The notes under the pieces are model-generated. The model saw only the letters and a program-made list of their open reading frames with translations. It had not been told where the DNA came from and did not search any database. Positions 11,433 through 18,944 of a DNA stretch of 64,000 nt are shown piece by piece. The stretch spans positions 32,001-96,000 of the forward strand of contig JANNVQ010000038.1 of NCBI GenBank assembly GCA_031414535.1, given 5' to 3'. How positions within the stretch are numbered: position 1 is the first letter of the stretch; each line of letters opens with the position of its first letter. The translations under genes and the position numbers were made by a program. This DNA comes from Gemmatimonas sp. Lineage in GTDB: Bacteria; Gemmatimonadota; Gemmatimonadetes; Gemmatimonadales; Gemmatimonadaceae.

Positions 11433-11563
11433 GAGCCACGCTCGGCGGCGGCGCGCTTGCGGGCCACGGTATTACGTCGCACGCGGATGGAAATCCCGTA
11501 CACGACGAAGAGTCCAATGATGGCGCCGTAGGCCACCTGGAAGTAGATCGCGTTGTCGGGCAT
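11429..11563 (-). CDS. ccmD: Heme exporter protein CcmD (44 aa, absent from the ORF track)
   Basis: MPDNAIYFQVAYGAIIGLFVVYGISIRVRRNTVARKRAAAERGS: single TM with AYG and basic tail; start overlaps ccmC stop, stop overlaps ppa start. Confidence 0.8.
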   Translation of the reverse strand: MPDNAIYFQVAYGAIIGLFVVYGISIRVRRNTVARKRAAAERGS

Positions 11564-12261
11564 TAGCGCTCCGCAGTGGAAAGGTCGTGCAGCGCATCAC
11601 GCTCAGCCGCCAGTGCCATGCGCTGACGCACAAGAGCCAAGTACAGCACGGTGAACGCGCCTAGCGAGAGGAAGAGCGTCTTGATCATCACCGCCGGCAT
11701 CTGGATGCCCGCCGTGTTGGCCACGATGGGCGTAGGATGCTGTGTGCGAAACAGGTACACACTCAAGTGAATGAACGGAATGAGTAGCGCGCCAAGAATG
11801 CCGACCACGGCGGAGTAGCGCGCGCGCGCTTCGGGATCATCCACCGCCGACCGCAACACTAGGTAGCCGAGGTAGAGGAACCAGAGGAAGAGCGTCAGGG
11901 TGAGCCGCGCATCCCACACCCACCAGGCGCCCCAAATCGGCCTACCCCAGAGCGGACCCGAGACGAGTACGCCGGTGGTGAAGATTACGCCGACCTCCGC
12001 CGAGGACTCGGCAAAGCGGTCAAGACGCGCATCCTTGATGAACAACCAGACGCCGCCGGCGATGGCGGTGAGACCAAAGGCGAGAAAGGCCACCCAGGCC
12101 GACGGGAGATGCACATAGAAAATCTTCTGCGCCAATCCCTGCAGGCGCTCAGCCGGCGTGAACCAAATGGCACGCGTGAGCGCGGTGGCCATGAGGAGCA
12201 CCGCCGCGAGCATCAGCCAATCAATACCGCGCGTGCGCGCGGATGAAACAGTAGCGGTCAC
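11563..12261 (-). CDS. ccmC: Heme exporter/cytochrome c biogenesis protein CcmC
   Basis: WWD motif WGRPIWGAWWVWDARLT; conserved His in FYVHLP and RTQHP. Confidence 0.95.
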   Translation of the reverse strand: MTATVSSARTRGIDWLMLAAVLLMATALTRAIWFTPAERLQGLAQKIFYVHLPSAWVAFLAFGLTAIAGGVWLFIKDARLDRFAESSAEVGVIFTTGVLVSGPLWGRPIWGAWWVWDARLTLTLFLWFLYLGYLVLRSAVDDPEARARYSAVVGILGALLIPFIHLSVYLFRTQHPTPIVANTAGIQMPAVMIKTLFLSLGAFTVLYLALVRQRMALAAERDALHDLSTAER

Positions 12262-12264
12262 AGG

Positions 12265-12960
12265 TCAGTCTTCAAGCGTGAAGGGGAACGCCAAGGTACA
12301 GGCATACACAAAGACGAGGTCAAACGCGAGCAGGATACGAATCCAGCCCAAGGATTCGTCGAGCGGGCGCCCGGCGAGCAACTTGGCCGTCACCTGCGCG
12401 GCCGGCAGCACGATGGGCACGAAAAACGGTAGCGCGAGCACTGGCAAGAGCAGTTCCGCCATTCGCGTGTTGGACGTGATGCCGGCGAACAGGGTCCCGA
12501 CGCAGGTCAGGCCGATGGCCGCGAGCACCATCACGAGCGCGAGCGGCCCTATGATCGAGCTGAAAGGCAGATTGTAGAACAGCGAGACTGCGGGCAACGC
12601 TACGAGTTGAACGCCGATGACGAACACGAGGTTCGCCATTGCCTTGCCCAAAAAGATCGCCTCCCGTGAGATGGGCGCCACGAGCAGCGCATCCATGGCG
12701 CGCTCTGCGGCTTCCACGCCGAAGGAGCGATGGAGGCCGAGGAGTCCCGAGTAGGTGAAGGTCACCCAGAGAATGCCCGGTGCCACATCCACCGCCGCAA
12801 CGGCGGTCGGATCCCACGCAAAGTAGAAGATGACGAGGGAGAGCAGCGAGAGCACCATCGCGGAGAGAAACGCAGAGCGGGTGCGGAACTCGATGGCGAG
12901 GTCCTTCTGCGCAACAATCAAGGCGGAGGCGAACATGCCCGGCGGCGTGGCACGACTCAC
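12265..12960 (-). CDS. ccmB: Heme exporter permease CcmB
   Basis: KDLAIEFRT, APGILWV and ELLLPVLALPFFVPIV; lies between ccmA and ccmC. Confidence 0.93.
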   Translation of the reverse strand: MSRATPPGMFASALIVAQKDLAIEFRTRSAFLSAMVLSLLSLVIFYFAWDPTAVAAVDVAPGILWVTFTYSGLLGLHRSFGVEAAERAMDALLVAPISREAIFLGKAMANLVFVIGVQLVALPAVSLFYNLPFSSIIGPLALVMVLAAIGLTCVGTLFAGITSNTRMAELLLPVLALPFFVPIVLPAAQVTAKLLAGRPLDESLGWIRILLAFDLVFVYACTLAFPFTLED

Positions 12961-13655
12961 GAAAACAGCTCCCGGTACTCGGCGGCGTAGCGTGTGAGGT
13001 CGAGCTCACGCGTGGGCTCGTGACGGAGAAAGCGACCGGCTCGCATCACGGCAGCCTGCGAAGCCACGGCGAGGCCCTCACTGAGCTGGTGCGTGACGAC
13101 CACGAGCGCGGCGCCAGCGGCGCGACGCTCGAGGAGCAAGCCGGTGAGGGCCGCGCTGCCTTGTTCATCAAGACCGGTATACGGCTCGTCGGCGAGGAGC
13201 ACGTCGGGCTGGTGCACGATGGCACGGGCAATCGCAACGCGCTGCTGCAGGCCGCGCGAGAGCGCCCGCACGGGCACGTCGGAGCGGTCCGCGACGCGCA
13301 GTGCCTCGAGTGCCCGCTGGGTGGCGGCATCCAGGTCGGCGATGCCGTGCAACTGCGCGGCGAAGCGCACGTTTTCGCGAGCACTGAGCGCGTCGTAGAG
13401 CATCGTGCGGTGCGATATGAGTCCCACGCGGGCGCGAGCGGAGACAGCGGGCAACGCATCGCCGCCGATTCTCGCGACTCCGCCGGCGGGCTTGAGCAGG
13501 CCAGCGAGCAGCCTCAGCAGCGTGGTCTTGCCGGCACCGTTGGGCCCGAAGAGGGCGAGCGCGTCACCAGCCGCCACCGTGAACGAGACGTCATCCACAG
13601 CTCGACGCGTGCCGAAGCTGCGCACGAGGCCCGTAGCTTCGAGAAGCGCGGTCAC
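12957..13655 (-). CDS. ccmA: Heme ABC exporter ATPase CcmA
   Basis: Walker A GPNGAGKT, LSRGLQQR, ADEPYTGLD; coupled to ccmB. Confidence 0.92.
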   Translation of the reverse strand: MTALLEATGLVRSFGTRRAVDDVSFTVAAGDALALFGPNGAGKTTLLRLLAGLLKPAGGVARIGGDALPAVSARARVGLISHRTMLYDALSARENVRFAAQLHGIADLDAATQRALEALRVADRSDVPVRALSRGLQQRVAIARAIVHQPDVLLADEPYTGLDEQGSAALTGLLLERRAAGAALVVVTHQLSEGLAVASQAAVMRAGRFLRHEPTRELDLTRYAAEYRELFS

Positions 13656-13726: not shown

Positions 13727-14074
13727 TTAGTTGCTCGGTCGTGAGTCCGAACGATCGATGTCGAATAGCGCGCCCATATGCGTCTCCGTGAGGAGCCGCT
13801 GCACGAGGGAGGGCACCGAGAGGAGTCGCGTGCGAAGCCCACGTTCACGCGCGCGCTTCTGGAGGAGAATGAGGACGCCGAGTCCCGAGGCATCGAGCTC
13901 GACGACACCGGAAAGATCGAGATTCACCGAACTCTCACCGGCGGCCGAGGCCGACTCGAGGGCGTTGAGCACGTCTTGACGGAATTCAAGGCGGTAGTCC
14001 GCCGTGAGACGCGCGGGGCAAACGAGGGGAGTCATTGGATCGCCAGGGATATACAGGTAAGGCAGCGCGGTCAT
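13727..14074 (-). CDS. STAS-domain (anti-anti-sigma-like) protein
   Basis: VNLDLSGVVELDASGLGVLILLQKRARERG motif; ATG 14074 has GGAGG upstream (alternative start 14035). Confidence 0.85.
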   Translation of the reverse strand: MTALPYLYIPGDPMTPLVCPARLTADYRLEFRQDVLNALESASAAGESSVNLDLSGVVELDASGLGVLILLQKRARERGLRTRLLSVPSLVQRLLTETHMGALFDIDRSDSRPSN

Positions 14075-14155
14075 GCGACCTCCGAGAGGAAGCCCCTCCC
14101 CACAGCGACCCAGAACTGCTCCTGCTGCCCGATGGGCACCTGGCCCATCCCTCTT

Positions 14156-14240
14156 CACTTCGGCAACCGGACGATCTCGGTAATCCGAGATTCCTGGCTT
14201 TGCGTCCCCGCCTCGCAGCGAGTTTGCTCTTGTCGGTGTG
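14156..14240 (-). ncRNA. GEMM-I (cyclic di-GMP-I class) riboswitch, A20 variant; predicted c-AMP-GMP responsive
   Basis: Minus strand CACACCGACAAGAGCAAACUCGCU-GCGA-GGCGGGGACGCAAAGCCAGGAAUCUCGG-AUUA-CCGAGAUCGUCCGGUUGCCGAAGUG: GCAAA, GNRA-capped P2, GACGCAAAGCC junction, P3, UGCCGAA. Confidence 0.9.
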
Positions 14241-14648: not shown

Positions 14649-16613
14649 ATGAACGACATCCGCGATTTGCTCGTCGAGAACCGCTCATTCCCGCCGGCGC
14701 CCGAGTTCAGCGCCAAGGCCCATGTTCGCGACCGCTCGCTGCACGAGGCCGCTGAGCGCGATTACTTGGCGTATTGGGCCGACCAGGCCCGCACGCTCAA
14801 GTGGACGAAGCCATGGTCGAGCGTGCTCGAATGGAAGGCGCCGCACGCCAAGTGGTTTTTGGGCGGTCAACTGAACGTCAGTGAGAACTGCCTTGACCGG
14901 CATCTCGACTCGGCGCGCCGCAACAAGGCGGCTATCGTTTGGGAGGGAGAGCCTGGCGACCGTCGCACATTGACGTACTGGGAGCTGGCGCGTGAGGTGC
15001 GCACCTTCGCCAACGTGCTCAAGTCGCTCGGCGTGGAGAAGGGCGACCGCGTGGGCCTCTATTTACCGCTTGTACCGGAAGCAGCCATCGCGATGCTCGC
15101 CTGCGCGCGCATTGGCGCCATTCACTCCGTGGTGTTTGGTGGATTCTCCCCGGAGTCATTGCGCGACCGCATGAACGACGCCGAGGCCAAGGTGGTTATT
15201 ACGGCCGACGGCGGATATCGCCGCGGGCAGATTGTGCCCCTGAAGCGCAACACTGACAAGGCGCTCGAGGGATGCCCGACGGTGAAGCACGTGGTGGTAG
15301 TGCAGCGCCGTACCTCGGGACCGATCTCGGAAGCGCACGTGGACATGCAGGAAGGCCGCGACCACTGGTATCACCGCCTCATGCAGCACGCCAGCGATGT
15401 GTGCCCACCCGAGCCGATGGACGCCGAGGACGTGCTCTTCATCCTCTACACCTCTGGCACGACGGGAAAGCCCAAGGGCATCGTGCACAGCACCGGCGGC
15501 TACCTCACCGGCGTGGCGAGTTCTACGAAGCTCGTGTTCGACTTGAAGGAAGAAGACGTGTTCTGGTGCACCGCCGATGTGGGTTGGATTACCGGGCACA
15601 GCTATCTCGTGTACGGACCGCTCGCCAACGGCGCGACCTGCGTGATGTACGAAGGCGCGCCCGACTGGCCGGAGCGCGATCGCTTTTGGAGCATCATCGC
15701 TCGGCACGGCGTGACGATTCTGTACACGGCACCGACGGCTATCCGCGCCTTCATGAAGTGGGGCGTGGAGCATCCGCAGCGGCATAACCTCTCTTCGCTG
15801 CGCTTGTTAGGATCGGTGGGCGAGCCGATCAATCCCGAAGCGTGGATGTGGTATCAGGAGCACATCGGTGGTTTGCGCTGCCCCATCGTGGATACCTGGT
15901 GGCAGACGGAGACCGGCTCCATCGTGATTTCTCCACTGCCTGGCCTCACCGCCACCAAGCCTGGCTCGGCGACCACTGCCCTCCCCGGCTACTCCGCCAC
16001 GCTCCTCGACAACGAAGCCAAGGAACTCACGAGCGGCGGGGGATTGCTGGTCCTCACAAAGCCTTGGCCCTCAATGCTACGCACCATTTGGGGCGACGAT
16101 GCTCGCTACGTGGAGACCTACTTCTCCAAGTGGGCTGGGCGGCCCGACATCTACTTCGCCGGCGACGGCGCCAAACGCGATGCCGACGGGTTCTTCTGGC
16201 TCCTCGGCCGCGTGGATGACGTGCTCAATGTTGCAGGGCACCGCATTGGGACCATGGAAGTGGAATCCGCGCTCGTGGAGCACCCGGCGGTCGCCGAGGC
16301 GGCGGTGGTTGGCAAGACGCACGAACTGAAGGGTCAGGCCGTGGCGGCCTTCGTCACGCTACGGGACGGATTCCACAAGAGTTCGTCGCTGCGGGATGAA
16401 CTGCGGGAGTTCGTGGCGATGAAGATCGGCGCACTCGCGCGGCCGGACGACATTCTCTTTTCGGCGGATCTTCCCAAGACACGCTCGGGCAAGATCATGC
16501 GGCGCCTGTTGCGCGACATCGCTGAGGGACGGGCCCTCGGGGACACCACCACGCTGGCTGACCCCAGCGTGGTGGCATCGCTCAAATCACAGTACGAGGA
16601 TCAAGAAGGCTAG
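14649..16613 (+). CDS. acs: Acetyl-CoA synthetase (AMP-forming)
   Basis: [20 protein letters not shown] and [12 protein letters not shown] motifs. Confidence 0.97.
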
Positions 16614-18479: not shown

Positions 18480-18944
18480 ATGACGGACACAGTCGCGCTG
18501 CTGCGCGGCGTCGCCATCTTCAAAGATCTCGACGACGGGGAGTTAGCCCGCGTCGCAGAAGTATGTCGCACCAAGGAGTTCGTCTCCGGTGAGTACATCT
18601 TTAAGGAAGGCGAGGCCGGTAGCCGCTTGTATTTGATCGTGGAAGGCGACGTGCGCATCTCGCGCGTGGTCCCGGGCAGCGGTGAGGAAGCCTTGGCCGT
18701 CTTGAAGCCTGGCGCGCTGTTTGGCGAGATGTCCGTGTTTGATCGCAGCGAGCGCTCCACCGACGCCATCTCCAACGGCGGCACCAAGGTGCTGACCATC
18801 TCACGCAGCGACTTCGAGTTGTTGCTCGATTTCAATCGCGAAATCGCGTACAAGGTACTCTGGAGCTGCACTCGGCTACTCTCGGGGCGACTCAGAGCCA
18901 CGAATGACTCGCTGAGATCTTTCCTCGCGATGTCAATGTTCTAA
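18480..18944 (+). CDS. Stand-alone cyclic nucleotide-binding domain protein
   Basis: IFKEGEAGSRLYLIVEGDVRI and FGEMSVFDRSERST; no HTH. Confidence 0.9.
   Translation: MTDTVALLRGVAIFKDLDDGELARVAEVCRTKEFVSGEYIFKEGEAGSRLYLIVEGDVRISRVVPGSGEEALAVLKPGALFGEMSVFDRSERSTDAISNGGTKVLTISRSDFELLLDFNREIAYKVLWSCTRLLSGRLRATNDSLRSFLAMSMF

Follow-up and report, generated by a model that had tools for sequence, protein, structure and literature searches.

An A20-variant GEMM-I riboswitch in Gemmatimonas that may read c-di-GMP, and candidate cGAMP-signalling components elsewhere in Gemmatimonadales

The window analysed here is a stretch of 64,000 nucleotides from the genome of a Gemmatimonas sp. (G000, 98.4% complete). 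A cmscan of the whole window returned a single Rfam match, to the c-di-GMP-I (GEMM-I) model RF01051, covering the full model at 66.2 bits (gathering score 35, E 9.4e-11) and lying on the minus strand, where a sequence-only reading had placed a GEMM-I aptamer. The aptamer sits in the 5' leader of a STAS gene, is oriented to it, and lies 84 nt upstream of its start. The earlier reading had also called for a search for further A20 GEMM copies in the genome, and the window aptamer proved to be the only one. Its guess that the organism belongs to Gemmatimonadota was borne out by STAS relatives with the window's aptamer, which are titled Gemmatimonas sp. or Gemmatimonadaceae.

Table 1 Features of the riboswitch locus and of related loci discussed in the text.
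Feature	Position	Strand	Basis or remark
GEMM-I (c-di-GMP-I, RF01051) aptamer, A20 variant	14159..14238	-	cmscan and covariation
A20, ligand-selecting base 5' of GCAAA	14228	-	sequence; A in 28/29 same-subtype genus aptamers
C92	14163	-	sequence; invariant in 17/17 aligned relatives
Downstream partners of both strands of P1 in the predicted ligand-free fold	14099..14130	-	folding, 26 orthologues
Short hairpin over GGAGG ribosome-binding site	14079..14089	-	sequence; closed in either state by prediction
STAS protein, 115 aa, anti-sigma-antagonist-like, DASGLG serine S63	13727..14074	-	PF13466, PF01740 over cut-off
ccmA, haem export ATPase	12957..13655	-	TIGR01189 142.7 bits, over cut-off
ccmB-like, single copy	12265..12960	-	TIGR01190 E 3e-17, below cut-off
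ccmC-like, single copy	11563..12261	-	TIGR01191 E 9e-44, below cut-off
Divergent acetyl-CoA synthetase gene, conserved neighbour	14649..16613	+	outside switch control
HEAT-repeat and HD-GYP pair, an insertion separating trpB from trpA	L199:3100-6377 (G000 C37)		
Asn348 GGDEF with 4Fe-4S and [FeFe]-hydrogenase C-terminal domains	L193:247-1989	+	
Asn348 GGDEF with 4Fe-4S and [FeFe]-hydrogenase C-terminal domains	L188:1492-3183	-	
Asn348 GGDEF with 4Fe-4S and [FeFe]-hydrogenase C-terminal domains	L191:1492-3210	-	

The match of the STAS protein to TIGR00377 falls below cut-off, and S63 is presumably its phosphorylation site. The gene next after STAS is ccmA at 25/27 loci of the genus, at 9/9 STAS-linked loci of a sister family (f2), and at 1/5 loci in the window's own family (f1) outside the genus. 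The aptamer–STAS–ccmA unit is common to both families, from which we infer a shared ancestry of the switch. Co-transcription of STAS with ccmABC is no more than presumed, given a weak hairpin resembling a terminator in the interval from STAS to ccmA. Gly takes the place of the STAS serine at two loci, L028 (genome G010) and L077 (G442), and G010 carries the single G20 aptamer of the genus. Some 4 kb from the riboswitch, at window positions 18480-18944 on the plus strand, is a gene for a small stand-alone protein that by eye has the look of a cyclic-nucleotide-binding domain.

The RNA is a member of the known c-di-GMP-I (GEMM-I) structural class. Over 17 relatives picked by hand, pairing in the fold reaches 95.8%, and 13 of the 21 pairs show changes in both partners, compared with at most 48.9% and at most four pairs in slid controls. 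The lower P2 pairs, G21-C46 and C22-G45, are found in all 17 aligned relatives. The third pocket base is an A at 14201, which we take to be the equivalent of A47 in Vc2. Likeness to Vc2 and RF01051 extends over the full-length model match, C92, the base of P2 and a GNRA loop, whereas A20, a short P3 stem closed by CUC/GAG and the lack of a downstream terminator set the window aptamer apart from Vc2. In Vc2, G20 and C92 are ligand contacts, with C92 pairing to a ligand guanine (Keller 2018, PMC6140456). The base immediately 5' of GCAAA, which is G20 in canonical Vc2-type c-di-GMP-I aptamers, is A here (T14228 on the plus strand), as the sequence-only reading had seen, and A20 together with C92 is the combination found in GEMM-Ib cGAMP riboswitches. 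The CGACAA...GCCGAA flanks that it had likened to those of Geobacter are present; as a marker of cGAMP sensing they are ruled out, because G20 aptamers in the same order carry the same flanks (L011).

An A20 aptamer outside Deltaproteobacteria holds as an observation for this Gemmatimonadota genome but not as a novelty, given the precedent of Cbe 1-2, a natural c-GAMP-class aptamer from Clostridium beijerinckii (PMC6140456). Cbe 1-2 binds c-di-GMP with a KD of 30 nM and cGAMP with 463 nM, and the Vc2 G20A variant binds them at 53 nM and 120 nM, respectively (Keller 2018, PMC6140456). With a natural aptamer of the A20 kind from Clostridium favouring c-di-GMP 15-fold, A20 alone, by analogy, does not fix the ligand and is not a sufficient ground for calling cGAMP signalling. 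Elsewhere, the Geobacter pgcA switch is ~1200-fold selective for cGAMP (PMC6456294), and an A-variant from Desulfobacca shows improved cGAMP binding with c-di-GMP binding only slightly weaker (Sherlock 2022, PMC9481103). Changes in lower P2 also alter selectivity (Landgraf 2022, PMC9262584); the aptamer of pilM, which senses cGAMP, carries U.G there (U15.G38), where the window aptamer, at the same spacing and on an inferred mapping, has C22-G45. The window aptamer resembles Geobacter GEMM-Ib (Gs1761, pilM) in having A20 and in lying upstream of cytochrome c-related genes, but its host is without a Hypr synthase, it has no intrinsic terminator, and it is the one GEMM-I copy in its genome compared with 17 in G. 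sulfurreducens. Cbe 1-2 is likewise a non-deltaproteobacterial aptamer with a protonatable pocket adenine. It belongs to another phylum and another gene and has measured KD values, whereas the window aptamer is known from its sequence and is likened to Cbe 1-2 by description.

The proposal that the source organism uses cGAMP finds no support in its genome. No recognisable synthase turned up in any of the classes searched for, one of the outcomes that the sequence-only reading had named as counting against it. The GGDEF specificity position was anchored on GacA (6d9m), in which a Ser lies nine residues after a conserved Asn and where diguanylate cyclases have Asp. A six-frame search of the source genome gave nine GGDEF domains, seven with Asp and two degenerate, and 0/9 were of the Hypr type (Ser/Thr348). 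SMODS and DAC domains were not found in the source genome with one Pfam model each, which detected them in controls and which cover only part of the CD-NTase clades. By tblastn the genome has no orthologue of the MASE1-GGDEF or Fe-S-sensor-GGDEF proteins described below, and a crude scan for nucleotidyltransferase motifs gave five unconvincing matches. Among five A20-bearing genomes of the genus that are 95–100% complete, 0/41 GGDEF domains have Ser, Thr or Asn. DNA patterns, which use fixed spacing and may miss variants, placed a non-Asp GGDEF in 1/55 genus genomes (absent in 54/55) and in 0/26 of those at least 90% complete. A GGDDF enzyme on contig C7 was considered as a synthase resembling GSU1937, which joins a GGDDF motif to Ser (PMC8835794), and was ruled out because it has Asp348, likewise its orthologues in 10/10 other genomes. 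This receiver-GGDDF protein (L009, G000 C7:84421-85461, minus strand) has an unusual NDRYSYY motif and is single copy in 11/11 genomes examined. Isolated Hypr-type GGDEF genes, possibly retained or re-acquired, are present elsewhere in f1 at L070 (G452) and L149 (G312).

Folding predictions suggest that the switch acts on translation, since no terminator was found downstream of the aptamer and an alternative fold is predicted to compete with P1. This alternative pairing exceeds the shuffled control for the 3' strand of P1 in 23/26 leaders and for the 5' strand in 21/26, with compensatory changes in G004, G009 and G443. In the source genome only the 5'-strand pairing is clearly above its own control (0.75 vs 0.41, compared with 0.44 vs 0.42 for the 3' strand). 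Access to the ribosome site is predicted to be greater in the bound state in just 10/26 leaders. With ligand bound, P1 would be locked at the expense of the conserved alternative fold, and translation of the anti-sigma-antagonist-like STAS protein, and possibly of ccmABC behind it, would change. A protonated-adenine contact of the kind described by Keller would let the aptamer bind both ligands. The likely input in the source organism would be c-di-GMP from four or five intact Asp cyclases.

Aptamers were found in 31/55 genomes of the genus, with ~25 giving no match, and 48 of the 49 aptamers have A20. They fall into two subtypes, the STAS type with 29 members and a second one with 20 (U13, C17, G48). 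A20 is kept in 23/24 STAS-type orthologues, whereas 0/22 synonymous sites of STAS are as much as 95% identical (the mean is 63%) and G is the preferred base at two-fold A/G sites. By this comparison of sequences A20 is under purifying selection in the genus and is not decaying, which rules out its reading as a decaying relic. At the STAS locus G20 occurs in two f1 genomes, G010 and G132, neither with a non-Asp GGDEF match. Among 19 genomes from other f1 genera without an A20 match, three have a close STAS homologue and one of the three has an aptamer, with G20; STAS loci of f2 were picked by the A20 pattern and cannot show absence of G20 in that family. Order-wide counts from one draw of 200 genomes placed a non-Asp GGDEF in 5/87 genomes of f1, 78/86 of f2 and 12/27 of f3, and A20 aptamers in 16/87, 60/86 and 2/27, respectively. 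Only two of the 16 A20-bearing f1 genomes have a non-Asp GGDEF.

The second A20 subtype (U13-A94, C17, G48; seen in L018, L022, L031 and L033) occurs in 66/401 genomes of the phylum; where loci were read, it precedes genes for lipoproteins or Ig-like surface proteins. In f2 the A20/G48 subtype is enriched with Hypr (25/14/25/102, odds ratio 7.3), a ratio from non-independent kin and from a Hypr pattern that under-counts through codon restriction and missed G037. As a strict Hypr partner this subtype (B) was ruled out by its presence in G007, G028 and G032 without a non-Asp GGDEF. Tandems of an A20 (subtype B) aptamer then a G20 aptamer, 160-200 nt apart, were seen in L141, L142, L143, L144, L145, L146 and L148, and triple A20 tandems in G039 (C3, C36). 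The A20-then-G20 order held in 7/7 f2 regions, which were chosen for adjacent aptamers. Large Ig-like repeat surface proteins follow the tandem in the one region with genes read, and in another tandem region a hairpin resembling a terminator closes the A20 unit. Of the mixed tandems that Sherlock 2022 (PMC9481103) lists in Table 2, none joins a cGAMP-type aptamer to one for c-di-GMP. Several of the aptamers in L144, L146, L147, L148 and L150-L153 score over the RF03167 (c-di-GMP-I-GGC) cut-off, a label that is misleading for them because position 47 is A.

Candidate cGAMP machinery does appear in the order, in the sister family f2. Among the matches listed, its non-Asp GGDEFs are of a Ser type in 23 genomes and of an Asn type in ~75/86. 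The Ser type is a MASE1-GGDEF protein, with members named Gemmatimonadales. Ser348 and the GGDEF motif are present in 29/30 loci, the remaining one being a chance match, and position 304 is Tyr or His, with one locus ending before it. These proteins combine the three published Hypr features (Ser348, GGDEF motif, non-Arg 304; after Hallberg 2019) and are candidate synthases on that basis. They are like GacA at these positions, with a MASE1 sensor replacing the receiver domain. The Asn type differs from GacA in Asn348 and in its fusion to Fer4/Fe_hyd_lg_C/FeS domains, found in 3/3 proteins scanned (Table 1). In 4/5 genomes examined (52/55 domains covered), Asn348 goes with Tyr, Phe or Leu as residue 304. 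By its residues this protein is outside the published Hypr rule of Ser/Thr348; it may work like Hypr, and it is a candidate for a cyclase under redox control with a new type of specificity.

RxxQ is a signature of cGAMP-specific phosphodiesterases (bioRxiv 10.1101/600031), and the corresponding HD-GYP position was set by ungapped alignment to PmGH R314/K317. The single-copy trp-operon HD-GYP has RxxQ, in common with the GAP phosphodiesterase PmxA, in 79/79 f2 genomes (39 Hypr-positive and 40 pattern-negative, chosen). In the window's genus the position is M in 18 genomes, T in 17, Q in three, N in two, and A, V and S in one each (n=43), so that Q or N occurs in only 5/43 and the c-di-GMP-type K/R never. 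The source genome has T there, and 0/5 of its HD-GYP domains are Rxx(Q/N) (four K/R, one T). G452, the sole Hypr-bearing genome of the genus, has M. RxxQ is kept in G045, where 0/9 GGDEFs have Ser or Asn, and RxxQ may therefore not track cGAMP. Two further active-site-proximal Glu changes accompany the drift of the genus HD-GYP.

The reading we prefer, with confidence that is evenly poised, is of a probably bispecific switch that came down from an order-wide Gemmatimonadales cGAMP regulon and now reads c-di-GMP. Here c-di-GMP is the likely ligand because the source bacterium is without a recognisable cGAMP-making enzyme. The precedents of Cbe 1-2 and Vc2 G20A, both tighter on c-di-GMP than on cGAMP, point by analogy in the same direction, and the C-G lower P2 and the G20 aptamers at the STAS locus of G010 and G132 are consistent with it. 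A cGAMP ancestry is suggested by the contrast in the trp-operon eraser (RxxQ throughout the f2 genomes, Q/N rare in the genus) and by the shared aptamer–STAS–ccmA unit. The predicted synthases and eraser of the ancestral regulon would survive in f2, and in the presumed order of events the window's family would have lost the synthases. Against c-di-GMP reading after cGAMP ancestry stand the conservation of A20 in the genus though G20 would bind c-di-GMP more tightly, an HD-GYP that never went back to K/R, the M of Hypr-bearing G452, the RxxQ of G045, and family f3, which has Ser enzymes but few A20 aptamers. Selection on A20 can be explained by tuning of c-di-GMP affinity and also by a synthase not yet recognised, which stays a rival because A20 is still under selection.

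Such a synthase would make the switch a true cGAMP sensor, in a genus that makes cGAMP by a signature-less enzyme or takes it up from neighbours, and we regard this as possible though unlikely. Purifying selection on A20, its near-uniformity among genus aptamers and the HD-GYP that never reverted to K/R all fit a cGAMP sensor, and a switch before cytochrome c maturation genes echoes the Geobacter cytochrome regulon. Erasers of the cGAMP type are also more widespread than known synthases (Wright et al., bioRxiv 10.1101/600031). The lack of any Ser/Thr/Asn GGDEF, SMODS, DAC, MASE1-GGDEF or Fe-S-sensor match argues against it, as do the Asp of the GGDDF enzyme, unlike GSU1937, the unconvincing nucleotidyltransferase scan and the single aptamer in the genome. 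Somewhat less probable again is that A20 has always been affinity tuning for c-di-GMP in Gemmatimonadales, with the Ser, Asn and RxxQ signatures of f2 unrelated to riboswitches. The scarcity of non-Asp GGDEFs among A20-bearing f1 genomes and of A20 in f3, where Ser-type GGDEFs are common, would suit such tuning, as would the location of RxxQ in a housekeeping-like trp-operon gene and the putative status of the Asn348 cyclase. It sits poorly with MASE1 enzymes that fit the Hypr features at nearly every locus, with the enrichment of A20/G48 alongside Hypr in f2 (subject to the kinship and under-counting noted above), and with the fixed A20-then-G20 order of the tandems, which suggests two different ligands. 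A non-functional relic, at which the genus genomes without a match and the aptamer-less close STAS homologues (L154-L156, L158) might hint, is highly improbable in view of the near-invariant pocket, covarying stems and conserved alternative fold with its compensatory changes.

The RNA class itself and A20-type aptamers outside Deltaproteobacteria are already in print. What may be new is the set of parts across the order, together with the fusion that carries Asn348 and the tandems of mixed aptamers. Among the matches listed in literature searches, none on Gemmatimonad- with Hypr GGDEF or cGAMP had both Gemmatimonad- and Hypr GGDEF, those on Gemmatimonad- with c-di-GMP riboswitch or GGDEF/cyclic dinucleotide held no description of the system, and nothing on FeFe/GGDEF, Fe-S-fused or Asn348 synthases was evident. 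The main text of McCown 2017 (PMC5473149) does not mention the phylum.

The f2 set looks like a complete and apparently undescribed cGAMP circuit. More tentatively, and with something short of even confidence, we propose an undescribed Gemmatimonadales cGAMP network of MASE1 Hypr and Asn348 synthases, an RxxQ eraser, A20 switches and A20-G20 gates. If this is true, the Asn348 GGDEF would be a new synthase class driven by a [FeFe]-hydrogenase-like Fe-S redox sensor, STAS-ccmABC and Ig-like lipoproteins of the surface would be under A20 switches, and each A20-G20 tandem would act as a gate with two inputs, cGAMP and c-di-GMP. In that case the window's genus would be a natural experiment in which readers outlived the known writers or are served by an unrecognised one. 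One orthologous switch with and without a predicted synthase offers a testable case of the evolution of riboswitch ligand specificity, to which the natural G20 variants at the same STAS locus add. Gemmatimonadota are an abundant environmental phylum, to which the f2 enzymes would bring regulatory cGAMP signalling, besides naming a specific candidate for a new synthase class.
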